The notes beneath the pieces are model-generated. The model was not told where the DNA came from, did not search any database, and saw only the letters and a list, made by a program, of their open reading frames with translations. Positions 2,409 to 21,271 of a stretch of DNA of 21,271 bases are shown one piece after another. How positions within the stretch are numbered: position 1 is the first letter of the stretch; each line of letters opens with the position of its first letter. Location: positions 1 through 21,271 of the forward strand of contig JBDRSV010000018.1 in NCBI GenBank assembly GCA_043824495.1, written 5' to 3'. A program made the translations under genes and the position numbers. Source of the stretch: Candidatus Aenigmatarchaeota archaeon (GTDB lineage: Archaea; Aenigmatarchaeota; Aenigmatarchaeia; QMZP01).

Positions 2409-2559
2409 GTTACAAATTCTTCCACTTCAGGAATCTGAAGGATAGTATAAACGCAAAGTGAAATAGGATTCAATAACCAAAAAAACATGCTTAGATATAA
2501 CTTATGGAAAAGATATGGATACTCCTTACCAAATGATAAAATTGAGAAAATAATGAGAA

Positions 2560-2737
2560 TGGGCCCGGAGGGATTCGAATTCGTGGGACATAAGGTTTCC
2601 CTGACGTCCTCCCACGGCCACCCGGATTTCTGTCATCGCGAGTAAATTCGCTATACACGCTTTTAATGACTTTAAAAGCTTCATCGGGTTGCTCAAAACA
2701 TCCCACGGATGCTCTAACCAGACTGAGCTACGAGCCC
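2560..2737 (-). tRNA. tRNA-Lys(UUU) with three introns. Exons 2737-2706, 2679-2672, 2625-2611, 2579-2560; introns of 26 nt (30/31), 46 nt (38/39) and 31 nt (53/54)
   Basis: The spliced sequence GGGCTCGTAGCTCAGTCTGGTTAGAGCATCCGGCTTTTAACCGGGTGGCCGTGGGTTCGAATCCCTCCGGGCCCA (75 nt, no encoded CCA) folds as a cloverleaf with loop CT-TTT-AA. Each intron forms a 4-bp central helix with two 3-nt bulges (CATC/GATG, TTTT/AGAA, CGTG/CACG). Confidence 0.88.
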
Positions 2738-2859
2738 ATTCAGATCTTTATTCTCGATATATAGATCTATACTCATAATTAGTGGAATTTGTTTATTTAA
2801 ATCTAAATTTGGGATATTGGCACTCAAAAACATATAATTAAGGAAGATAATAAGATACT

Positions 2860-3801
2860 ATGGGAAAAGAGACCTATGATGTTCTGATTGTCGGAGGAGG
2901 TGCAAGCGGCCTATCTGCAGCACTTTATACTTCTAGAAGAGGTTTGAAAACACTCATTGTAACTGTTGATATTGGAGGACAATGTAATCTAACTAGTCAT
3001 ATAGAGAACTATCCTGGCATAGATAAGACATCTGGTTGGGCACTAATACAGAAAATGCAAGCACAAGTAATAGGATTCGGTACTGAAATAAAAATAGGAA
3101 AAGTGATGTCAACAGGAAAAACGAAAACAGGATTCTTTGTAAAGACAGCTGCTGGTGATAGATACGAATCTAAAAGTCTCATACTAGCTCATGGAAAAGC
3201 ACCAAAGAAAATGGGAATAAAAGGAGAGGCTACGTTCCTTGGTAAAGGAGTTTCTACTTGTATTGTATGTGATGGTCCTTTATTTAAGGGGAGAATAGTT
3301 GCCGTTGTTGGGTATTCTGCGTCTGCAGTTGAATCAGCAGACGAATTAGCTATCATAGGGAAGAAAGTTTACCTTGTTTGTGATAAAGAAAAAGTATATG
3401 GAGAGCAAGCAAGAATAGATGATCTGAAAAAGAGAAAAAATGTTGAAATACTTCTCAATACTAAACCGAAAGAAGTAAAGGGAGAGAAGTTTGTTAAGTC
3501 ATTGATTGTAACACAGGGAAAGAAATCAAGAGAAATCCAGCTTGAAGGTGTCTTTGTAGAGCTTGGTTATATTGTTGACACATCAAATGTGAAGAATTTG
3601 GTAAAGCTAAGTCCAAAAAACGAGATCATAACTGATAGAACAACAAAAACTTCTCAGCCAGGGGTTTTTGCAGCAGGTGATGTAACAGACATTCCATATA
3701 AGCAAGTTGTCATATCTGCTGGTGAAGGCGCTAAAGCTGGATTAGAAGCATATCATTTTGTCAAAGGAGATAAAGGAGTTAGAATTGATTGGGGGAAATA
3801 A
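2860..3801 (+). CDS. trxB: Thioredoxin reductase-like flavoprotein with degenerate NAD(P)H-binding motifs
   Basis: GGGASG FAD motif, GGQ...IENYPG, redox CIVC in [11 protein letters not shown]-terminal [14 protein letters not shown]...QVVISAGEG. Confidence 0.9.
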
Positions 3802-4295
3802 TGCCTGAAACAAAAAAACTCAAAATTGGAATATTCTCTTTTACAGGAGATGAAGGTTGTGTCATTACACTCATAGAAGTTTTGAATGATTATTTCTTTA
3901 AATGGAAAGATTATTTAGACATAAAATATGCTAGAGTTTTGCAGAAAAACAATACGCTGGAAGATATAGATGTGTCTATTATAGAAGGAGCAATATCAAG
4001 TAAGAGAGAAGAGAAGAAAATAAAAGAAATAAGAAAAAACTCAAAAAGAATAATAGCATTTGGTTCTTGTGCAATAAGTGGTACACCGTCCAACCATAGG
4101 AACTTCTTTGATAAGGAGAAACTAGAAGAAATAGATTTTATTGTTAAAAGATTCAAGCTTAATAAGAAGGTAGAGCCACTAAACAAATTCATAAAAGTGG
4201 ATGTAGAAGTTCCTGGCTGCCCTATAATAGAGAAAATTTTTATTGACCAAATGTATAAGTATTTTGAAGAGTTCGGAATAAAGGTTCCTAGGTAA
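3801..4295 (+). CDS. [NiFe]-hydrogenase small subunit, truncated to the proximal Fe-S cluster domain (group 3b-like)
   Basis: Motifs FTGDEGC, IEGAI, FGSCAISG, VPGCP; the protein ends about 20 aa after GCP. ATG 3801 overlaps the trxB stop (TAATG). Confidence 0.88.
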   Translation: MPETKKLKIGIFSFTGDEGCVITLIEVLNDYFFKWKDYLDIKYARVLQKNNTLEDIDVSIIEGAISSKREEKKIKEIRKNSKRIIAFGSCAISGTPSNHRNFFDKEKLEEIDFIVKRFKLNKKVEPLNKFIKVDVEVPGCPIIEKIFIDQMYKYFEEFGIKVPR

Positions 4296-4299
4296 TAAT

Positions 4300-5586
4300 A
4301 TGCACAAAACAGATGATATTGAAATAGATCAAATTAGTAAGATAGAAGGGCACTCTGATTTACACATAAAAGTGAGAGATGGTGAAGTTAAAGATGTCCA
4401 GATGATGGTAACAGAAAACAAAAGATTCTATACACAAGCAATTAGAGGAAAGAACATAAAGAATATTGCTCAGGTTGTTTCTAGAATATGTGGAACATGT
4501 AGTGTTGCTCATAACACATGCTGCATTGAAGCAATTGAGAATGCATTTCAGATAAAGCCCAGTGAACAAACAATGATTCTAAGAAATCTTACAATGAATG
4601 GTTTGATGATAAGAGATCATGCTTTACATCTGTATATATTTTCCCTGCCTGATGTCTTCAATGTAGATTCTATATTACAGTTTAACAAACAACAACACAA
4701 ATATGTGCATGATACATTCGATGTCAAAAAAGTTGGTAATAACCTATGCACCAGAGTAGCTGGAAGAGCTGTTCATCCAACACTACCTCAGGTTGGTGGT
4801 TTTCTTAAACTTCCTGACATGAAACTGTTAAAAGAATCAGTTGTAGAAATGAAAAAAATAAGACCAAGAATACTTGATTTAATTGATGTGTTTACTCAAT
4901 GTGACTTCAAATTCGAGACAGATACAGAATTTGTTGGACTTACAAATAGCGATTATAATTTCCTCGGTGGAGAAATATGTAGTAGTCAAGGACATTGTTT
5001 ACCGGAAAATCAGTTCTGGGATCATTTAGAGAGAGTTGTGCTACCTTATTCGCAAGCAACTGCATTTGAATTCGAAGGTGAAGAATATTTTGTTGGATCT
5101 TTAGCTAGAATGAATCTAAACAAGAAAAGCCTACATAAAGAAACACAAAAAGATGCGGCCAAGGCTTTGAAATTCTTCCCATCAAAGAACATGTTTCATA
5201 ATAACTTGTCTCAGGCAATAGAGATTCTGCATTGTATAGATAAATCAACTGAGATAATTGAAAAACTTGAAATAAAACCTGAAGTCAGACCAGTTATAGA
5301 ACCAAGAATGGCAAGCGGTATTGGTGTGATAGAAGCTCCTAGAGGTACATTGTACTACATGGTTACAATAAAACCAGATGGAAAAATTAGTTATGGCAAT
5401 CTAGTTATACCAAGTGCACAGAATCAAATTAAACTAAACATAGATTTGAAGAATTTCATAAATCCTATGATAAAAACACACGATAAGGATTACATAAAAC
5501 ATGAATTAGAAAAGCTGATCAGAGCTTATGATCCATGCATGTCTTGTGCAGCTCACTTCTTGAAAGTTCACTGGAATGAGAAATAA
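4300..5586 (+). CDS. [NiFe]-hydrogenase large subunit (group 3b-like)
   Basis: KIEGH, L1 RICGTC, EAPRG, L2 DPCMSCAAH, plus a cleavable C-terminal extension (FLKVHWNEK). Confidence 0.95.
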   Translation: MHKTDDIEIDQISKIEGHSDLHIKVRDGEVKDVQMMVTENKRFYTQAIRGKNIKNIAQVVSRICGTCSVAHNTCCIEAIENAFQIKPSEQTMILRNLTMNGLMIRDHALHLYIFSLPDVFNVDSILQFNKQQHKYVHDTFDVKKVGNNLCTRVAGRAVHPTLPQVGGFLKLPDMKLLKESVVEMKKIRPRILDLIDVFTQCDFKFETDTEFVGLTNSDYNFLGGEICSSQGHCLPENQFWDHLERVVLPYSQATAFEFEGEEYFVGSLARMNLNKKSLHKETQKDAAKALKFFPSKNMFHNNLSQAIEILHCIDKSTEIIEKLEIKPEVRPVIEPRMASGIGVIEAPRGTLYYMVTIKPDGKISYGNLVIPSAQNQIKLNIDLKNFINPMIKTHDKDYIKHELEKLIRAYDPCMSCAAHFLKVHWNEK

Positions 5587-6057
5587 TTACACTTCTTTGC
5601 CTTCTTTTATCCAGCCAATGTAATTGTCTAACCAGTGTTTATACGTCTCTTCAGGAAAGCGTCTTAATGATTGTAAAGAGATCATTTTTACTTTCTCTAT
5701 GTATTCTTGATCCAAATGTTTTACAGCAGGGCAATCAGGATCTATTAGAAATCTAACCGATCCGTTTTGAGGAATACCTATTAAAGGATAAGCTAAACAA
5801 TCCAGTGGTTTCATTTCTTGTGTTTTACATGTGTGTTTAGATGTTAGAAAAGGGCATTTTTTGTTTTCTAACCAGTCCTGGAAAACATAATAAACACCAT
5901 TGGGAGTTTCTTCCTTTTTGAGCTTCACACCGAATTTCTCTTTGAATATTAATGCTTCTTCTTCAGATAGAATAGGAACTCCAACAGCCTTTCTAGATTG
6001 ACAGCATTTTGCTTCACATGGAACGCAATGATCTATTAATGAAATATCTTCATTCAT
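5587..6057 (-). CDS. YkgJ-family cysteine-cluster (Fe-S/Zn) protein
   Basis: CxxCxxxCC, CPFL...C, KPxxCxxYP and CPA motifs. Confidence 0.8.
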   Translation of the reverse strand: MNEDISLIDHCVPCEAKCCQSRKAVGVPILSEEEALIFKEKFGVKLKKEETPNGVYYVFQDWLENKKCPFLTSKHTCKTQEMKPLDCLAYPLIGIPQNGSVRFLIDPDCPAVKHLDQEYIEKVKMISLQSLRRFPEETYKHWLDNYIGWIKEGKEV

Positions 6058-6070
6058 AATAATTATTGTT

Positions 6071-6454
6071 TTACAGCTTTTTAATCTCTTTTGATATTTG
6101 TTCTAGAGCCTGTTCTTTTGTGATCTTATCTGGAACACCTATTATGAATACACTTTCTAACATGTCCATTTTTCTAAGAAGTTTGAGGTTGAAACCAAGA
6201 TCATAATCGTGCATAGAATAGTTTGGAGAGAGTTCTATCTTATCTATATCCGTAAGCACTCGAACTTCTTTTATTCCGAGAATAGTGTCTATTATAACAG
6301 GGTTTCTTCCAATTACTTCTAGATTTTCTGTTGGATCTATCTCTTCGAATTCAATATCTGGGAATTTTTTAGATAGAGGTTTGATTAGTTTAAGTGGTAA
6401 ACTGTCTTGTTCTACTAAAGGATTCCCTAAAACAAATATTTTTTTTGGTTGCAT
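6071..6454 (-). CDS. Hydrogenase maturation protease-like protein (HycI/HyaD family)
   Basis: VLGNPLVEQDSL (cf. GNxLxxDDG), IIDT and SMHD motifs; adjacent to a hydrogenase carrying a C-terminal extension. Confidence 0.75.
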   Translation of the reverse strand: MQPKKIFVLGNPLVEQDSLPLKLIKPLSKKFPDIEFEEIDPTENLEVIGRNPVIIDTILGIKEVRVLTDIDKIELSPNYSMHDYDLGFNLKLLRKMDMLESVFIIGVPDKITKEQALEQISKEIKKL

Positions 6455-7365
6455 TATATAGCTCTTTCCCTGTGTTCGCTCTTTACATTAATTATTAGGA
6501 AAGCTCCTATGAGTATGACAGCTGAACCAACCAGCTGAAGTATAGGTGCTGGTTCTGCAAGGAATCCTACTCCTAGTATAAGTGTGATTACAGGAGCTAT
6601 TAGTAGAATGGTTGCAGCTTTTGATATGTTGATGTATTTCAAACTCCAGTAGAATGTGAGTATGTATCCAAATAGTATTGCAGTTGATATGAACAAGTTT
6701 ATTATCTGGTATGGTTGTAGTTCGAATAACAAATAGAATTTATTTGTGAGTAGAACTATTCCAAACAATACTAAAGCTCCGAAGAACATTCTACCAAATG
6801 AAATAACAAGGTTAGATTCTTTTAGCATCATAGCTTTCTTAGCTATTACAAGTTCTATTGCCCAGAATATGGTTGCGCCTATTATTAGGAAATCACCGAG
6901 TGCAGGATTCATCCATAAATCTGCAGGATTGATTGTTGCAGAATATAGAGTAACAGTTCCTATAATCATGAGTACAAGCGCTATTAACTGCTTCTTAGAT
7001 ATTCTTTCTCTCAAGAAAATGAATGCAAGTATTGTTGCGTATAATGGCAGAGTCTTATGTAAGAAAGCTCCACGTCCACCTGTAGTCATTGTTAATCCAG
7101 TGAAAAATAGTATGAATGCTATACCACCGCCTATAACACCGATAGCGAGCAGATATTTCCATGAAACTTTCTTGAATTTACTGTAATCAAACTTAGTGTG
7201 AATAGATGCTAGAATGAAGAATACGACACCGATTATTATAGCCCTCACAGCTGTGAATATTGTTGTGTCTAATCCAACGATGAAGATTTTGTTTGCAAAA
7301 ATAGCAAACCCACTTATTATAGCCGTCAAAAGGGCAAGTAATGTTCCAACAATTTCTTTTTTCAT
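6454..7365 (-). CDS. DMT/EamA-family transporter
   Basis: About 10 TM segments in two EamA-like repeats. Confidence 0.85.
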   Translation of the reverse strand: MKKEIVGTLLALLTAIISGFAIFANKIFIVGLDTTIFTAVRAIIIGVVFFILASIHTKFDYSKFKKVSWKYLLAIGVIGGGIAFILFFTGLTMTTGGRGAFLHKTLPLYATILAFIFLRERISKKQLIALVLMIIGTVTLYSATINPADLWMNPALGDFLIIGATIFWAIELVIAKKAMMLKESNLVISFGRMFFGALVLFGIVLLTNKFYLLFELQPYQIINLFISTAILFGYILTFYWSLKYINISKAATILLIAPVITLILGVGFLAEPAPILQLVGSAVILIGAFLIINVKSEHRERAI

Positions 7366-7398
7366 TTCAATATAACCTTAATCTTATTCTATAAAAAT

Positions 7399-7932
7399 CT
7401 AATCAAAAAAGTCCTCTGAGATATTTTTAATTTTCAAAATTTTTTTTGCTGTTTCAATATCGGTTTTCTCTGCCACAAATCCCCAGTGTGTGATCACGAG
7501 ATCACCTGTTTTTAGATTTGGTATTAGTATATTCTTGTACTCTTTCTCCTCTTTAGGGGTCTTCAGTATAACTGTTTTCTCTTTCATTTCAATTACTTGT
7601 CCTGGATAGGTTCTACATTTTTCAGGATCAAAGTCCCCCATTTCCTTATATCTCTTTTCTATTATTTCATCATGTTCTACGAGGAAATATTTTCTGATTA
7701 TGTCTGCATCTATTTCATCTTTATTTTCCTTTTTAGCAAGAAGAGTGCACATAGCTAAAGCCACTTTAAACATATTTTCTATGTTTTCAGGAAGTTCTCT
7801 GCTTTCAGAAATTCTGTTAATTAAATCATCAACAACTTCTTGTGTTGTTGATCCTCTCTGAACCAAAGTTCCTGCACATGGTATTGCATACCTGATAAAA
7901 AGTTCCCTATCTTTCACTTTCATTGGGTCCAC
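7399..7932 (-). CDS. Hydrogenase-associated protein: helical N-domain plus C-terminal HypC-like OB domain
   Basis: C-terminal CRTYPGQVIE...GDLVITHWGFVAEK resembles HypC (C..P..V...GDYVLVHxGFA); N-terminus has ELFIRYAIPC. Confidence 0.55.
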   Translation of the reverse strand: MDPMKVKDRELFIRYAIPCAGTLVQRGSTTQEVVDDLINRISESRELPENIENMFKVALAMCTLLAKKENKDEIDADIIRKYFLVEHDEIIEKRYKEMGDFDPEKCRTYPGQVIEMKEKTVILKTPKEEKEYKNILIPNLKTGDLVITHWGFVAEKTDIETAKKILKIKNISEDFFD

Positions 7933-8116
7933 ACACTATAGAAACATCTTCTTTTTCTATTTTTTCAATTGCTACTCCGCCAGCAAAAATAACATAGTCT
8001 CCAGATTTCAAACCTTGAACAAGTTCTACGTTTAGTTCTATTTTCTTATCTTTAAACTTTGCTATAGCTTTTTTCCCATCAGATTCCAGGATCCTAGCAG
8101 TTGTCACTTGACACAT
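7907..8116 (-). CDS. hypC: HypC/HybG/HupF-family chaperone
   Basis: 69 aa, N-terminal Met-Cys, GDYVIFAGGVAIEKI; the conserved His is absent. Confidence 0.75.
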   Translation of the reverse strand: MCQVTTARILESDGKKAIAKFKDKKIELNVELVQGLKSGDYVIFAGGVAIEKIEKEDVSIVCGPNESER

Positions 8117-9488: not shown

Positions 9489-9623
9489 GCTAGTTCTTTT
9501 AATTATTCTCCTTCTCGGTATATATATTCTCCGTTCAAGGTATTCTATAAAATAAAGTTATTGAAGATGATTATCCTATTAAAAATAGTTAGGCTCTTTT
9601 AATAGTGGGTGAAGACAAATAAT

Positions 9624-10097
9624 ATGATGGGAGATGTGATTAACAGAAATCTAAAGATTATCACAATATTAGCAGTTATAGGAATAATAATTTCATCCTT
9701 TTTACTTTATTTGAAAATGAGCGGAGGCGAGAGTTTTTGTGATTTCTCCGCTGAAATTTCATGTGATGCAGTAAGTCAGAGTCCTTATGCAGAACTCCCA
9801 CCTAATTCAGGGATTCCTATAGCAGGACTTGGTATAATAGCATTCTTACTCTACATAATACCTTCTATATGGTTGATGAAAGCAAAAGAAAAAATATTGG
9901 GCATGGAGAAAAAAACAATTCACTACCTGTTGCTCGCTTGGGGTGTTTTCAGTTTGATATTTTATGCATATCTAACTTATTTGGAATTGTATGTAATCTA
10001 TGCGATCTGTCCATTATGCGTAGTAGAAGCTATTATAACAATCGTGATGTTCATTTTCATAGTTTATAATGTAAAAATAATGAGAGATGAGTCATGA
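9624..10097 (+). CDS. Vitamin K epoxide reductase (VKOR) family protein
   Basis: Loop Cys pair FCDFSAEISCDAVSQSPYA, active-site CPLC, 4 TM segments. Confidence 0.9.
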   Translation: MMGDVINRNLKIITILAVIGIIISSFLLYLKMSGGESFCDFSAEISCDAVSQSPYAELPPNSGIPIAGLGIIAFLLYIIPSIWLMKAKEKILGMEKKTIHYLLLAWGVFSLIFYAYLTYLELYVIYAICPLCVVEAIITIVMFIFIVYNVKIMRDES

Positions 10098-10486
10098 AGT
10101 TTTTAGTGCTTTTAACAATAGCTGCTATTATTTTTGTGAGTGGTTGTACAGCTGCTCCCGCAAAAGATCATGCTTTTACTAACTGTTTGACAGAGAATGG
10201 TATAAGTGAATATGGTGCATATTGGTGTCCAAATTGTGCAAGAGTTAAATTAACTCTTGGTGATGCACATCACAATGTGGATTATCATGAGTGTGATCCA
10301 AAATGTGTGGTTGATGATAATGGAAATCTTCCAGACTTCTGCAATGGAGTTATGAGCGAGACAGACGTTTGTCTCGAAAAGGGTGTTAACAAATATCCTA
10401 CATGGATAAAAGACGGTCAGCAAATATATGTAGGATCGGATCTAACTAAACTTGCAGAAGCTAGTGGATGTCAGCTTCCTGAATAG
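10094..10486 (+). CDS. Thioredoxin-like lipoprotein (VKOR-partner type)
   Basis: Lipobox-like FVSGC; YGAYWCPNC, YHEC...C and YPTW motifs as in the Trx domain fused to cyanobacterial/plant VKOR; start overlaps the VKOR stop. Confidence 0.85.
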   Translation: MKFLVLLTIAAIIFVSGCTAAPAKDHAFTNCLTENGISEYGAYWCPNCARVKLTLGDAHHNVDYHECDPKCVVDDNGNLPDFCNGVMSETDVCLEKGVNKYPTWIKDGQQIYVGSDLTKLAEASGCQLPE

Positions 10487-10493
10487 GATATAA

Positions 10494-11330
10494 ATGGTAA
10501 GTAAAAAAGAAATCGGAGAAGAGAATAGTAGAGCAAACATTTATAGTAAAAATAAGTCTGCAAGAAGGAGGCTTATTAGTATTGGTGCGATATACATAAT
10601 TGCAGTTTATGTGACATATCTTCTTGCAGGAATTGGTTTGATCTGGTTCCAGGGTATTCTCATTACTCTAGGATTGGCCTTATACCTTGGGGTGATTGTT
10701 GGAATCATTCTTCTTATTTTTGGACTTCTGGAAATCAAGGATTTCTTCTGGTATGGACGAGGATTATCTCTAGCAATACCAGTTAGATTTACAAGTACAA
10801 TAAAAGCCAAAGCAGCTCATGTGACAGGGCTGGGTGCAATAGTACTTGGTGTGTTTGTTGCAATGGTAGAACTTCCATGTACTGGGGGTCCATATCTTGC
10901 TATTACTGCAATACTGGCATCAAAATTTGATTTGCTGGCTTTCTACTACCTCTTACTGTATAATTTCATTTTTGTCTTGCCTTTGATAATTATAGTATTC
11001 CTTGCAGCTTTTGGTGTTAAGTACGAGAAAATGAAAGCATGGAAACAGTCTCAAAAGAAATGGATGAGACTTATTGCAGGAATCTTGTTGATATCTTTCG
11101 GTGTATTTATCATATCATATTATCTGGGCTTCGTAAATATAGAATATTTGGGTGTTGACACATCTGGTGGGGCGATCACTCTGGAGGGTTTAACCTTACC
11201 TGTTGTGATAGGAACAGCAATAATAGATTCTGTTAATCCTTGTGCAATTGGAGTTCTATTATTACTGGTCGCAACACTTGTTTCAATAAGTAGAGCTGAG
11301 AAAATCCAGATAAAAAAATCTATAGAGTGA
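10494..11330 (+). CDS. CcdA/DsbD-beta-like transmembrane disulfide transporter, circularly permuted
   Basis: Contains ELPCTGGPY and IDSVNPCA motifs and IKDFFWYGRG; multiple TM segments. Confidence 0.8.
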   Translation: MVSKKEIGEENSRANIYSKNKSARRRLISIGAIYIIAVYVTYLLAGIGLIWFQGILITLGLALYLGVIVGIILLIFGLLEIKDFFWYGRGLSLAIPVRFTSTIKAKAAHVTGLGAIVLGVFVAMVELPCTGGPYLAITAILASKFDLLAFYYLLLYNFIFVLPLIIIVFLAAFGVKYEKMKAWKQSQKKWMRLIAGILLISFGVFIISYYLGFVNIEYLGVDTSGGAITLEGLTLPVVIGTAIIDSVNPCAIGVLLLLVATLVSISRAEKIQIKKSIE

Positions 11331-11337
11331 TTAATTA

Positions 11338-11826
11338 ATGACATGTAAACCAGAACAGTTATGGGCTGCACTTAGAATAGTCCTTGGATGGATATTCTTA
11401 TGGGCATTTCTTGACAAAGTTTTCGGATTAGGATTCGCTACAAAACCGGAAGCCGCATGGATAGCTGGTGGATCTCCAACAAGTGGATTTCTTCAATTTG
11501 GAACACATGGACCATTAGCTTCTATGTTCCAGGTTCTTGCAGGAAACGTCTTTATTGACGGCATCTTCATGTTAGGACTACTGTTACTAGGGCTAGCATT
11601 AATATTGGGTATTGGTGTCAGAATTGCAGGACATGCTGGTGCATTATTGATGTTCTTAATGTGGTTGAGTCTTATACCACCTGCTAATAATCCAATAGTG
11701 GATGAACACATAGTTTATCTAATCTTGCTACTACTAATGGCTAAGGTAAAGGCTGGACAGTGGTATGGTCTAGGTAAATGGTGGTCCAACAAAACTTTTG
11801 TTAAGAATCATCCAATTTTAGAATGA
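11338..11826 (+). CDS. DoxX/DoxD-family membrane protein
   Basis: LRIVLGWIFLWAFLDK...GGSPTSGFL...NPIVDEH...G.W.GLG motifs. Confidence 0.85.
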   Translation: MTCKPEQLWAALRIVLGWIFLWAFLDKVFGLGFATKPEAAWIAGGSPTSGFLQFGTHGPLASMFQVLAGNVFIDGIFMLGLLLLGLALILGIGVRIAGHAGALLMFLMWLSLIPPANNPIVDEHIVYLILLLLMAKVKAGQWYGLGKWWSNKTFVKNHPILE

Positions 11827-11829
11827 AAC

Positions 11830-13002
11830 CTATAGGAAAATATTGAACAAATAACCAATGATTAGTATTTGAGGAACTGTTATCAATGGTAATAATAGAG
11901 CTGCTCTTTTTCCTATATTAGAAGCTATCAATCCTATTTCTGTGTAATCTGTTGCAACACCGGCCATCAAGAATGTAAATGCGTTCCCTGTTGCGCCTGT
12001 TTGATTGTATATCTCAAAAGCTATCGGTGAAGAACCCTCAGAGCACACTTCTATTATAGTGGCTATCACTAGTGTTATAAACAAGCCAATTAGTGTTGGT
12101 CCAAGATATGTGGCAAATAATTCAGCATGTATGAAAACTCGAGCAAAACTAGCAAATATCATACCTATTAAAACCCACCACAATACCATCTTTGTAAGAG
12201 ACCAGGAGCCTCTTACTATTCCTTTTGCAATCTTCATGTTATCAGGACTTTTCTTGTAGAATTTCCATCTCTTTTTAATGTCATTGCCAACAGAAAAATC
12301 CTCTATTATATCAGATGTATGTGGATTTACCTCAACCAAATTTTTTCTTTCCAATACCTGATAAATGAGACCGGTTATGATTGCGATTAATATAGCGGAC
12401 AGTATGAAGTAAAGTGCGTTTATTCCAAAGAAACCAAATAGAAGGATGGTCATGGGTAAATTAGCCCATGGACTAGCTAACAAGAAAGCGATGACAGAAG
12501 AAACTGAAGCACCCTTTCTATAGAATTCCATTGAGATTGCTAAAATTCCGTGAGAACACGCAGACATAATAAATCCTAGGAGAACAGACCAGCCTATTGT
12601 TCTCTTCTCGTTTTTAGAAAGAAACTTAGAAATGTATTCACTTGGTATAAGGTACTCCACGAAACCTCCTATTACAAAACCGAGTATTATTGCCCACCAT
12701 ATAAGTAGTAGATAATCGTAGAATGCGAACCAGAAATCATTCAAAATTGTTATTCCAAAAACTGAAACAACAGGATTCAGTACAAATAATATAATCAATG
12801 CAATTAATAATTGATAAAGTCTTTCTTGATACCATTTCTTATTGTGTTTATTTGATTCTGATGGTGAACATGAAGGACAATATGGATCCTTTTTAGGTCT
12901 GTTCTTTTCTTCATATTTTTTAATGCAATGATTACTACAAAAATAATTTCCATGGGCTTTTATGTGACCTTTCATTCCACATATAGGGTCTCTTTCTTTC
13001 AT
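11830..13002 (-). CDS. DUF318/ArsP-type permease with N-terminal YHS/TRASH-like metal-binding domain
   Basis: N-terminal DPICGM...YFCSNHC; permease motifs SACSHG, FLLASP, EVCSEG. Confidence 0.8.
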   Translation of the reverse strand: MKERDPICGMKGHIKAHGNYFCSNHCIKKYEEKNRPKKDPYCPSCSPSESNKHNKKWYQERLYQLLIALIILFVLNPVVSVFGITILNDFWFAFYDYLLLIWWAIILGFVIGGFVEYLIPSEYISKFLSKNEKRTIGWSVLLGFIMSACSHGILAISMEFYRKGASVSSVIAFLLASPWANLPMTILLFGFFGINALYFILSAILIAIITGLIYQVLERKNLVEVNPHTSDIIEDFSVGNDIKKRWKFYKKSPDNMKIAKGIVRGSWSLTKMVLWWVLIGMIFASFARVFIHAELFATYLGPTLIGLFITLVIATIIEVCSEGSSPIAFEIYNQTGATGNAFTFLMAGVATDYTEIGLIASNIGKRAALLLPLITVPQILIIGYLFNIFL

Positions 13003-16113: not shown

Positions 16114-16135
16114 TATATTGATATGTATCAATATA
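16114..16135. promoter_or_regulatory. Probable ArsR operator in the divergent promoter
   Basis: Perfect 10-2-10 inverted repeat TATATTGATA-TG-TATCAATATA within the 32-bp gap between the arsR and trx starts. Confidence 0.75.
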
Positions 16136-16138
16136 AAT

Positions 16139-16402
16139 ATGGCAATTATAAGAATAGAAGTTTTCGGTCCCAGTCCTCCTTGTACCAGGTGCAAGATGCT
16201 GAAAAATATAGCAGAAAATGTTGCAAAAAAACTGAAAACTGAAGGTATTGAAGTGAAAGTATTCCATTCAAACATAACATCACAGGAAACCATAAAAAAA
16301 TACGGTATTCTGGTTTCACCCGCTCTTGCAATAAATGGTATCGTGAGATTTATGGGAAGGCTGCCAACAGAAAGTGAGATAGAGAAAGAAATAAAAAAAT
16401 AA
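16139..16402 (+). CDS. Small thioredoxin-family redox-active disulfide protein (MTH895-like)
   Basis: IEVFGPSPPCTRC, YGILVSPALAING..RFMGRLP. ATG 16139 preferred because 16118 lies inside the operator. Confidence 0.85.
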   Translation: MAIIRIEVFGPSPPCTRCKMLKNIAENVAKKLKTEGIEVKVFHSNITSQETIKKYGILVSPALAINGIVRFMGRLPTESEIEKEIKK

Positions 16403-16416
16403 GATAAGGTGTTATT

Positions 16417-17451
16417 GTGAATGAAAATACACGAATAATAAGAAAGGTTATTTTAATCCTTTTCATAGTTGCTGTTTTTTCATTACTTATTTACAGTAGA
16501 ATAGAGGCTTATTCCTTGGTTCCAACTCTGCAGCAATCTGATTTGTCAAAATATATGTGGTTCGAAATACCGATTTACTACCTATGGGACTACGTTAGCC
16601 ACGCTTGGATATGCCTTCTTTTCGCTTTTGTTGTAGCCGGATTGTTTTATGAATTTGTGCCCAAAACATTTTTCACAAAATACATGAGCAGCAAGAAAGC
16701 ATCAGGCTATCTTATAGGAATAATAATGGCACCTTTCTTTACTGCATGTTCATGTACCATGGTGCCTATTTTTGCAGGACTGGTATACGGCGGAGCAGGC
16801 ATAGGACCTGCAATATCGTTCCTTTTGATGGCACCTGCAGCTAACATACTAACAATAATAGTTACTGGAGAATTGATTGGGTGGGAAATAGCTCTTATAA
16901 GAATAATAGTCTCTGCCATTACTGCTATCATTGCAGGTGTTTTCATAGCCAAAACGCCCTGGGGAAAATCCATAGAAAAGCGGTTTAAGTTAAAGGAATC
17001 CAGAAAATCTGACAATATCCAGATATCCAATCCCCCTTTAGATGATCGTTTATGGTCGTCCATTACATTTGGCGGCTTTCTGGCAAAAAAGATAATTCCG
17101 TATTTTGTAGTCGGCTTAGTGGCAGTAAGTTATGTGGAGGCTTATCTTCCGCAAGATCTTGTTACAACCTATTTAACTGGAATTTTGGGCATTATTTTAG
17201 CATCGCTTATAGGAGGTCCTTTATATACACCAACACTCGTGGAGATAGCACTTGGAAAAACTTTGCTAACTCTGGGAATGTCCAAAGCAGCCTTGCTTTC
17301 CTGGCTCATGGGGCAGCCTTATGATATACCAAACATGGTAGCAGTTTCAAGGATCGTCAAATGGAAGGTTGTCATAAACTATGCTTTAATAGCACTTGCC
17401 TTCAGTATAATATTTGGTTTGGTTTATGGAATTTTAATTGGTGTGATATAG
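16417..17451 (+). CDS. DUF318/ArsP-type permease
   Basis: PFFTACSCTMVP, FLLMAPAAN, FLAKKIIPY and GGPLYTP motifs; co-oriented with trx, downstream of arsR. Confidence 0.85.
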   Translation: MNENTRIIRKVILILFIVAVFSLLIYSRIEAYSLVPTLQQSDLSKYMWFEIPIYYLWDYVSHAWICLLFAFVVAGLFYEFVPKTFFTKYMSSKKASGYLIGIIMAPFFTACSCTMVPIFAGLVYGGAGIGPAISFLLMAPAANILTIIVTGELIGWEIALIRIIVSAITAIIAGVFIAKTPWGKSIEKRFKLKESRKSDNIQISNPPLDDRLWSSITFGGFLAKKIIPYFVVGLVAVSYVEAYLPQDLVTTYLTGILGIILASLIGGPLYTPTLVEIALGKTLLTLGMSKAALLSWLMGQPYDIPNMVAVSRIVKWKVVINYALIALAFSIIFGLVYGILIGVI

Positions 17452-20877: not shown

Positions 20878-21271
20878 ATGGACGTTAAAGAATCAATTCG
20901 TCAAAGAAAAAGCATACGTAAATATCAAGATAAGAAAATTCCTGAAGAAATTATCAAAGATCTTTTAGATGCTGCACGAAGAGCTCCTTCAGCAAAGAAT
21001 ACACAATCTCATAAATATTTTGTTGTTAAAGATGAAGAGACTATGCATAAATTAAAGGAACATAATGCATTCAAACAACCTTTTGTATATGATGCTCCTT
21101 TAATTATTATTTGTTGTGCAGATCCAAGCCAATATCCTGAAAGTGTGGATGTTGATGATTCTCCTGAAAATTATGCTTTGATAGATCTTTCAATTGCTTC
21201 TTCTTTTTTAACCTTAAGAGCTACCGAATTAGGTCTTGGTACAGTATTCGTAGCATGGATATACCGTGACA
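20878..21271 (+). CDS. Nitroreductase-family flavoprotein (3' truncated by window edge)
   Basis: Hand translation: MDVKESIRQRKSIRKYQDKKIPEEIIKDLLDAARRAPSAKNTQ...APLII..D.SIA...L.A.ELGLGT. Confidence 0.92.
   Translation, partial: MDVKESIRQRKSIRKYQDKKIPEEIIKDLLDAARRAPSAKNTQSHKYFVVKDEETMHKLKEHNAFKQPFVYDAPLIIICCADPSQYPESVDVDDSPENYALIDLSIASSFLTLRATELGLGTVFVAWIYRD

Follow-up and report, generated by a model that had tools for sequence, protein, structure and literature searches.

A thioredoxin reductase-type flavoprotein lacking both pyridine-nucleotide motifs as the candidate redox partner of a minimal [NiFe] hydrogenase in a DPANN archaeon

A 21,271-nucleotide contig of a Candidatus Aenigmatarchaeota archaeon (JBDRSV010000018.1, contig C18 of a 1.01-Mb, 29-contig genome that is 80% complete; the whole contig is referred to below as the window) carries at positions 2860-5586 a tightly coupled three-gene operon, in which the gene for a thioredoxin reductase (TrxR)-like flavoprotein, P0001, precedes the genes for the small and large subunits of a minimal [NiFe] hydrogenase (Table 1). 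We judge the chance somewhat better than even that this operon encodes an H2-linked, NAD(P)H-independent disulfide reductase system, its substrate most likely being thioredoxin (Trx). Within that reading, the replacement of the usual diaphorase by a TrxR-like flavoprotein as redox partner of the hydrogenase, possibly via a small carrier, is well supported by comparative genomics. A broader proposal, to which we give slightly less than even credence, is that a subgroup of group-3 [NiFe] hydrogenases in DPANN archaea works with a NAD(P)H-independent TrxR-type partner as an H2:thioredoxin oxidoreductase, and that the partner was recruited at least twice: once from a lineage resembling TRi and the Thermoplasma acidophilum TrxR (type A), which is often fused to the small subunit, and once, here, as an apparent derivative of a canonical NADPH-dependent TrxR.

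The separate components are already known: the hyd2 hydrogenase, the NADPH-independent TrxRs and the ferredoxin-dependent flavin TrxRs (FFTRs). The sequence-only reading from which this study started knew of no description of a joint TrxR-hydrogenase architecture, and the open-access literature that we searched likewise holds no description of a TrxR-type flavoprotein coupled to a hydrogenase. What is new is an unfused, separately derived partner (type B), evidence from a blind sample for type A as a gene of hydrogenase clusters, and a link through ferredoxin and a C-terminal tail to the cyanobacterial type of FFTR.

A flavoprotein and a minimal hydrogenase in one operon

The three genes lie head to tail on the plus strand, and the nearest homologues of the proteins encoded in the window come from DPANN archaea (Aenigmatarchaeota, Woesearchaeota and Micrarchaeota), in keeping with an Aenigmatarchaeota-like source. 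The TAA stop of the TrxR-like gene (3799-3801) and the ATG of the small subunit overlap by one A (GGGAAATAATGCC; TAATG), and four nucleotides separate the small-subunit stop (4293-4295) from the large-subunit ATG (4300). The coordinates of the open reading frames bear out the earlier description of both junctions, and the start/stop overlap confirms the translational coupling predicted for the first two genes; an in-frame TTG at 3789 offers an alternative start for the small subunit.

How does P0001 differ from an ordinary TrxR? In a MAFFT alignment with its 119 nearest homologues (47-66% identity), the CxxC dithiol is kept in 118/119 of these, the GxGxxA motif in 116/119 and the HR-type motif for the 2'-phosphate in 112/119. 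P0001 retains the FAD motif GGGASG, a CIVC dithiol and the Trx-contact signature GKG...CDGPLF, and has GYSASA and CDKEKVY at the two nucleotide sites, so that the substitutions read from the sequence by itself (GGGNTA to GYSASA and HRRDxxR to CDKEKVY, with FAD and CxxC motifs kept) reappear in the alignment. Its nearest relative, P0004 (65% identity), has GGSASA and TPTPVLF at the same sites. The loss of both pyridine-nucleotide motifs is, in these alignments, real and beyond chance, and the overall pattern, with dithiol and Trx contacts kept and nucleotide motifs lost, is the reverse of that of a diaphorase or a ferredoxin-NADP reductase (FNR). The best family match of P0001 is the TrxR family TIGR01292, yet at 290.7 bits against a cut-off of 343.45; its NCBIfam matches to CoA-disulfide and sulfur reductases are weak, and among solved structures AhpF and archaeal TrxRs score above the FFTRs.

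The large subunit carries the Ni-Fe motifs RICGTCSVAH and DPCMSCAAH together with a C-terminal extension for endopeptidase cleavage. Its best solved-structure matches are group-3b alpha subunits (PDB 5yxy, 8.7e-62, and 9nez), with the Mvh large subunit next (5odc, 4.4e-47), and it scores 245 bits against the NCBIfam family ShyA (cut-off 700). These group-3b structures, of the cytosolic, bidirectional soluble hydrogenase I (SHI) of Pyrococcus and Thermococcus, are the best structural match to the window subunits, but SHI has four subunits, among them a delta subunit (~250-260 aa) with three clusters and a beta/gamma NADPH diaphorase, whereas the window encodes one cluster and no beta/gamma. The 164-aa small subunit aligns only to residues ~3-145 of the 261-aa SHI delta subunit (~3e-15) and therefore would hold the proximal cluster alone. 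Its ligand motifs are GDEGC, GSCA and PGCP, with Gly, in the subclade of the window, where the usual pair has its first Cys; because this leaves the subclade with just three Cys, the cluster is likely to have an Asp/Glu ligand or to be of the 3Fe type. Across hyd2 small subunits (alignment A4) the first motif takes the form CCEDS, CDEGC or GDEGC, and the GDEGC variant occurs both with and without a TrxR-like neighbour.

For comparison we assembled 160 related loci, drawn from contigs of genomes and metagenomes; a contig search with a single large-subunit sequence gave none, and an alignment query was needed. Among these loci, the relatives from DPANN archaea and from Candidate Phyla Radiation (CPR) bacteria with large subunits 44-69% identical to that of the window all have a small subunit of ~155-190 aa and no adjacent beta/gamma genes, and loci with large subunits 31-35% identical show the classical order beta(343)-gamma(277)-delta(260)-alpha. 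The window hydrogenase is a member of the hyd2 clade, judged by large-subunit identities and small-subunit length rather than by a large-subunit tree. The description of hyd2 from CPR bacteria (Jaffe et al. 2020, PMC7304191) gives a shortened small subunit averaging 164 aa, no beta/gamma, HypC-like genes nearby and, in some of the neighbours, PF07992 and Fe-S domains; it considers the function uncertain. The window agrees in small-subunit length, in the absence of beta/gamma and in its HypC-like genes; it differs in coming from a DPANN archaeon and in its partner, a CxxC-bearing TrxR-like protein without nucleotide motifs that is fused to the hydrogenase in relatives. Papers on DPANN archaea annotate these hydrogenases as NADPH-linked 3b enzymes.

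The absence of a diaphorase, noted earlier for the cluster, extends as far as the available genome allows: no beta or gamma gene is present in the operon, the Pfam domains Fer4_22 (PF17179) and DHODB_Fe-S_bind (PF10418) have no match in the 1.01-Mb, 80%-complete assembly, and tblastn with classical-3b beta/gamma sequences gave nothing beyond an unlinked 241-aa protein of FNR type, encoded on a different contig.

Recurrence and ancestry of the partner

Partner genes were scored in the flanks of 146 hyd2 loci, many of which lie on short contigs. No recognised partner was present in 105 of the 146; 15 had a ferredoxin and/or a 414-aa ferredoxin-reductase-like flavoprotein (Pyr_redox_2 + Reductase_C), mainly in CPR bacteria; 15 had pyruvate:ferredoxin oxidoreductase (POR) nearby, two of these also with an FNR-like flavoprotein and counted in both groups; and 8 had a TrxR-like gene. 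The trxB-hydS-hydL arrangement to which the sequence-only reading had drawn attention does recur in relatives, in some as a gene fusion, although its distribution is patchy.

In three of the 8 TrxR-like loci (L010, L065 and L107) the gene immediately before that of the large subunit encodes a single protein, in which a TrxR-like domain of ~300 aa is joined to the small subunit. When the L010 fusion was searched against a database, at least 29 protein clusters (90% identity level; 58-100% identical) that combine PF07992 and PF01058 were returned, their named members being mostly Aenigmarchaeota. The linker between the two domains is 20-100 aa long and unconserved, so the domains are likely tethered and not rigidly joined. 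An AlphaFold2 model of one fusion, P0245 (26-row alignment; pTM 0.55, mean pLDDT 73), has a disordered linker and domain packing that is unreadable. Extra cysteines of the fusions (C11, C273, C277 and C288) were considered as cluster ligands and rejected, as they are not conserved in the unfused type A proteins of L171 and L172. These two loci (large subunits 65% and 63% identical to that of the window) have the order type A/small/large, followed by a protease and an 81-aa ferredoxin, and type A also lies within the hydrogenase cluster of the same-family genomes G004 and G011.

Approached from the side of the flavoprotein, the association is tighter. Four type A proteins chosen only for their long contigs were all (4/4) encoded in hyd2 clusters, three in a row TrxR-like/ferredoxin/HycI convergent with small/large and the fourth in the order TrxR-like/small/large. 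Because every blind-sampled member sits in such a cluster, type A is, by its gene neighbourhood, essentially a hydrogenase-cluster gene, whereas hyd2 is often without type A. Type A proteins keep CxxC and GxGxxA (GNGNHAAE), and HRR is found in 0/120 members. Their best solved matches are PDB 5nii (4.7e-52) and 3cty (2e-46), of which the former, going by its 309-residue chain, is probably the Desulfovibrio vulgaris TRi. The latter is the T. acidophilum non-NAD(P)H thioredoxin reductase (named in PMC5627308), and this enzyme and TRi, like type A, keep CxxC and have lost HRR. TRi has TQ/NGK in place of HRRD, a motif that P0001, of a different lineage and with CDKEK at the site, does not share; TRi genes are described as isolated (PMC5627308), whereas type A is hydrogenase-linked.

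P0001 is only 28-39% identical to type A and 47-55% identical to canonical DPANN TrxRs. A quick IQ-TREE analysis nests P0001 and P0004 (SH-aLRT 99) among the canonical DPANN TrxRs (clade support 100); type A forms another clade (100), within which the fusions make up a single subclade (96). The P0001 lineage, type B, would thus have arisen from a canonical DPANN NADPH-TrxR, separately from type A. The locus of P0004, the sole close relative of P0001, has the order TrxR-like/81-aa ferredoxin/small/large, and the synteny of the window with two loci whose large subunits are 69% identical (L168 and L170) starts exactly at the small-subunit start. We read P0001 as the product of either non-orthologous replacement or independent recruitment, in which a copy of a canonical TrxR would have entered the slot and then lost its nucleotide motifs. 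Since the tree separates P0001 and P0004 from type A, two TrxR lineages would have converged on the same slot and the same kind of loss, and this apparent natural replicate argues that the coupling was selected for.

Two further observations concern related flavoproteins. Seven CPR hyd2 operons (L028, L036, L037, L039, L042, L045 and L149; for example L037:4929-8296) contain a ferredoxin (93 aa), the 414-aa putidaredoxin-reductase-like flavoprotein (Pyr_redox_2 + Reductase_C) and the small and large subunits in that order, and here the same minimal hydrogenase seems to have a different partner module, one linked to NAD(P)H. In the same-family genome G006 (C14:9616-11730) the TrxR homologue is found in two matching segments within one 713-aa open frame, which suggests an inserted element, possibly an intein.

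Electron route and competing explanations

A ferredoxin recurs beside the hyd2 and TrxR-like genes. It has 73-94 aa, is of the single-cluster Fer4_13/Fer4_15 type and carries the motif CIGAxxC...CP. A third member of the canonical clade with lost motifs, P0047 (GGSNTA/YNAEKLA), has a gene for such a ferredoxin at a distance of 400 bp and no hydrogenase in the surrounding 5 kb, and ferredoxin is for this reason the most general denominator of the motif-less TrxR-like proteins. The single-cluster ferredoxin of the window's own genome (82 aa, contig C22, 7205-7450) lies on another contig than the operon, near ribonucleotide reductase (RNR), an Fe-S assembly protein and the 241-aa FNR-type protein, and is 45% identical to the ferredoxin of L085, which sits directly upstream of a small subunit.

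The C-terminus of P0001 (...IDWGK) invites a comparison with FFTRs. D310 and W311 are invariant in a 35-row alignment of the canonical clade (A3), and the C-terminal Trp is present in 119/119 of the nearest homologues, including those with intact GGGNSA/HRR motifs. The one solved structure whose alignment with P0001 covers this tail and reaches the chain end is the DTR/FFTR of Gloeobacter violaceus (5j60). There the Trp of the tail lies stacked on the partner monomer's flavin, and both the binding of ferredoxin and activity strictly depend on it (PMC8154056). The Asp-Trp tail, described as distinctive of the cyanobacterial ferredoxin-dependent TrxR, is also general in the DPANN TrxR clade, and because HRR-bearing homologues have it too, it does not discriminate an FFTR. 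With the FFTRs as a whole (clostridial PDB 6gna; cyanobacterial DTR PDB 5j60; PMC8154056) P0001 shares the low-Mr TrxR fold, FAD, CxxC and the loss of NADPH motifs, with the cyanobacterial enzyme the aromatic Asp-Trp tail, and through its relatives an association with ferredoxin genes. Unlike them, it nests in the DPANN NADPH-TrxR clade and its gene is coupled to a hydrogenase, and the ferredoxins of the window type are ~80-aa single-cluster proteins (CxxAxxC...CP) and not of the plant-type 2Fe-2S or 2x[4Fe-4S] kind. Type A has D-Y at the place of the Asp-Trp tail and the fusion linker begins right after it; by analogy, the hydrogenase cluster may dock where ferredoxin docks.

We propose that the hyd2 heterodimer would split H2 and that the electrons would leave via the single proximal Fe-S cluster of the small subunit, reach the FAD of P0001 by direct docking or via the 82-aa ferredoxin, and pass through its CxxC dithiol to a small thioredoxin, which would in turn serve peroxiredoxins and RNR. 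With a potential of -414 mV, H2 is thermodynamically able to reduce thioredoxin (about -270 mV; textbook values). Four elements of this scheme, namely the loss of NAD(P)H use, the electron route, the direction of H2 uptake and thioredoxin as the acceptor, are what we infer from sequence. Because the TrxR-like domain is fused to the small subunit in type A, coupling there appears close and is probably direct; for type B in the window, a ferredoxin-mediated route is at least as likely as a direct one. The earlier idea of an H2-driven TrxR stands in part: fusions, operons and a 73-82-aa ferredoxin recurring in relatives point to a partner that replaces the diaphorase, and the direct route from Fe-S to FAD is for P0001 only a candidate, a ferredoxin gene intervening in the P0004 locus. 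A predicted complex of P0001 with the small subunit, with FAD and 4Fe-4S included and both chains supplied as alignments, scored 0.00 and has no bearing either way. A conceptual likeness exists with the group 3c Mvh-Hdr system of methanogens (MvhAGD-HdrABC), in which electrons from H2 likewise cross Fe-S clusters and a flavoprotein on their way to a disulfide, but which does so with the HdrA flavoprotein, an MvhD adaptor, electron bifurcation and heterodisulfide chemistry, and none of these components is found in the window.

The genome supplies possible end points for such a chain. Its sole detected TrxR homologue is P0001 and its sole thioredoxin-family protein a Thioredoxin_3 type encoded at 16118-16402; no glutaredoxin was found, and two peroxiredoxins and one RNR are possible Trx clients. 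This small thioredoxin directly precedes the second of two ArsP_1-type permeases (window regions 11830-13002 and 16118-17451), an arrangement that matches the known redox_disulf_2/permease gene pair, and because of that pairing it may serve the adjacent permease instead of general thiol redox.

Several observations weigh against the H2-to-thioredoxin reading. The reading is drawn entirely from genes and sequences, and a TrxR-like neighbour accompanies only ~5% (8/146) of the hyd2 loci sampled. For type B, the linkage depends on two genes, P0001 and P0004; the two nearest hydrogenase relatives (69% identical) have no TrxR-like gene upstream, and the same-genus genome G001 encodes small and large subunits without one, its canonical TrxR (GGGNSA/HRRDQFR) lying on another contig. 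D175 in the CDKEKVY segment of P0001 could still support NADH binding. At 80% completeness, the assembly may also lack a second TrxR or further partner genes that the organism has. HypD and HypF (HypF_C) were not found in this 80%-complete genome, nor was HypD in five related hydrogenase-bearing genomes (G001, G002, G004, G006 and G011; 75-95% complete), which somewhat lowers confidence in hydrogenase activity.

The constancy of ferredoxin as the neighbour of motif-less TrxR-like proteins, even where no hydrogenase is nearby (P0047), raises the question whether the genes cluster merely through a shared carrier, with other enzymes reducing ferredoxin, hyd2 venting surplus electrons as H2 and P0001 acting like an FFTR. 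Fermentative H2 evolution would also fit the CPR hyd2 operons with ferredoxin and an FNR-like flavoprotein, or beside POR/ACD; DPANN 3b-type enzymes are treated in the literature as H2-evolving (PMC8421398), and the DTR-type tail serves in ferredoxin docking (PMC8154056). We nevertheless consider this arrangement unlikely, though the strongest of the competing explanations: a fusion of TrxR-like protein and small subunit without a ferredoxin domain is hard to square with mere competition for one carrier, and the 80%-complete genome yielded no POR and, apart from the 241-aa FNR-type protein, no other evident reductase of ferredoxin. Less likely again is that the acceptor is sulfur, polysulfide or a low-molecular-weight disulfide or persulfide, making the complex a literal sulfhydrogenase with a CxxC flavoprotein. 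Such chemistry has precedents, in that group 3b enzymes reduce S0/polysulfide in vitro (cited in PMC7304191) and CxxC flavoproteins of this superfamily include the CoA-disulfide and sulfur reductases that P0001 weakly matches; set against them are the Trx-contact signature G[KR]G...CDGP[LF], kept in both lineages, the standing of TIGR01292 as best family match, and the presence in the genome of a small thioredoxin and Trx-dependent clients.

Could P0001 still use a nucleotide? D175 aligns with a Glu of the sister proteins P0009 and P0011 (NERQ/TERQ), and an acidic residue at the equivalent position is typical of NADH sites, so that the label 'NAD(P)H-blind' given to P0001 is to be taken as inference. 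P0001 would then be an unusual diaphorase of an NADH-linked hydrogenase, with a regulatory or vestigial CxxC, and FNRs of TrxR fold do exist (matches to PDB 3lzw and 2zbw). We hold this improbable, a shade more so than a sulfur acceptor: Ser replaces the second Gly of GxGxxA in P0001 and P0004 alike, the acidic residue is missing from P0004, the TrxR-fold FNRs show the opposite pattern (CxxC lost, nucleotide motifs kept), and the type A proteins in the same slot match 5nii and 3cty best, the latter being a non-NAD(P)H enzyme (PMC5627308). The least probable account, to which we attach very little weight, is that the adjacency is accidental or the hydrogenase genes are relics, a TrxR-like gene that uses an unrelated donor having landed upstream. 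It could claim the patchy linkage and the missing HypD and HypF; it sits poorly with overlapping stop and start codons, Ni-Fe and cluster ligands that are all intact, an endopeptidase gene and two HypC genes, and a linkage that arose independently, fusions included, in a second TrxR lineage.

Genomic setting and implications

Behind the operon, the minus-strand genes for a HycI-like endopeptidase, an EamA-family transporter, a HypC-fusion protein and HypC (Table 1) form a layout shared with L170. The only cluster-linked maturation candidates are HypC, the HypC-fusion protein, the endopeptidase and, in relatives, DUF6390; CPR hyd2 loci appear to have neighbours of hypF/D/E size. A 156-aa Cys-rich open reading frame (5587-6057, minus; CVPCEAKCC...) directly behind the large-subunit gene was considered as a conserved electron carrier and rejected, having no Pfam or NCBIfam match and no homologue in the fetched loci.

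Table 1. Genes of the operon, its minus-strand neighbours and the candidate thioredoxin substrate, in window coordinates
Feature	Position	Strand	Size and remarks
TrxR-like flavoprotein P0001	2860..3801	+	313 aa; Pfam Pyr_redox_2 1.7e-37
hyd2-type [NiFe]-hydrogenase small subunit	3801..4295	+	164 aa from ATG; Pfam Oxidored_q6 4.9e-20
[NiFe]-hydrogenase large subunit, group-3b-related	4300..5586	+	428 aa; Pfam NiFeSe_Hases 1.3e-30
HycI-like maturation endopeptidase	6071..6454	-	127 aa; conserved beside hyd2 genes in most related loci
EamA-family transporter	6454..7365	-	303 aa; recurs within hyd2 clusters of relatives
HypC-domain protein, N-terminal extension of ~100 aa	7399..7932	-	177 aa; conserved in hyd2 clusters
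HypC chaperone	7907..8116	-	69 aa
Small thioredoxin (Thioredoxin_3 / MJ0307-MTH895 type, CTRC)	16118..16402	+	94 aa; 12 kb downstream; candidate substrate

Elsewhere in the window, genes at 9609-11826 encode VKOR (162 aa), a secreted Cys-rich thioredoxin-like lipoprotein (130 aa, CPNC), a 278-aa unknown protein and a DoxX-like protein, a set that looks like an extracytoplasmic disulfide-bond-forming module. A probable tRNA gene at 2557-2740 (minus) is broken by long or multiple introns, its acceptor and D-arm (GGGCTCGTAGCTCAGTCTGGTTAGAGC...) lying ~180 nt from the T-arm and 3' acceptor (...TTCGAATCCCTCCGGGCCCA); ARAGORN and Rfam called no RNA genes in the window, this multi-intron tRNA, seen by eye, included. 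A nitroreductase gene (20878-21270) stands at the end of the window, and in the 69%-identical relative L168 a 113-aa nitroreductase-like reading frame (7281-7622) overlaps the large-subunit stop.

What would an H2:thioredoxin oxidoreductase mean for these organisms and for the enzyme families involved? Group-3 hydrogenases are classed by their partner modules (F420, NADP, Hdr and NAD), to which a TrxR partner would add a new one, and the habit of annotating DPANN '3b' enzymes as NADPH-linked would have to be given up. For the NAD(P)H-independent thioredoxin reductases the proposal offers a testable candidate reductant, a question that was never settled for the enzymes of D. vulgaris and Thermoplasma: if it is true, H2 and hydrogenase, with or without a 75-80-aa ferredoxin, would be the long-sought physiological reductant of TRi-type enzymes. 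It also suggests a source of reducing power for peroxiredoxins and ribonucleotide reductase in ultra-small anaerobic symbionts with little central metabolism, in which case cells with reduced genomes would draw on H2 from their environment, rather than on NADPH, for thiol redox homeostasis and for the synthesis of dNTPs.

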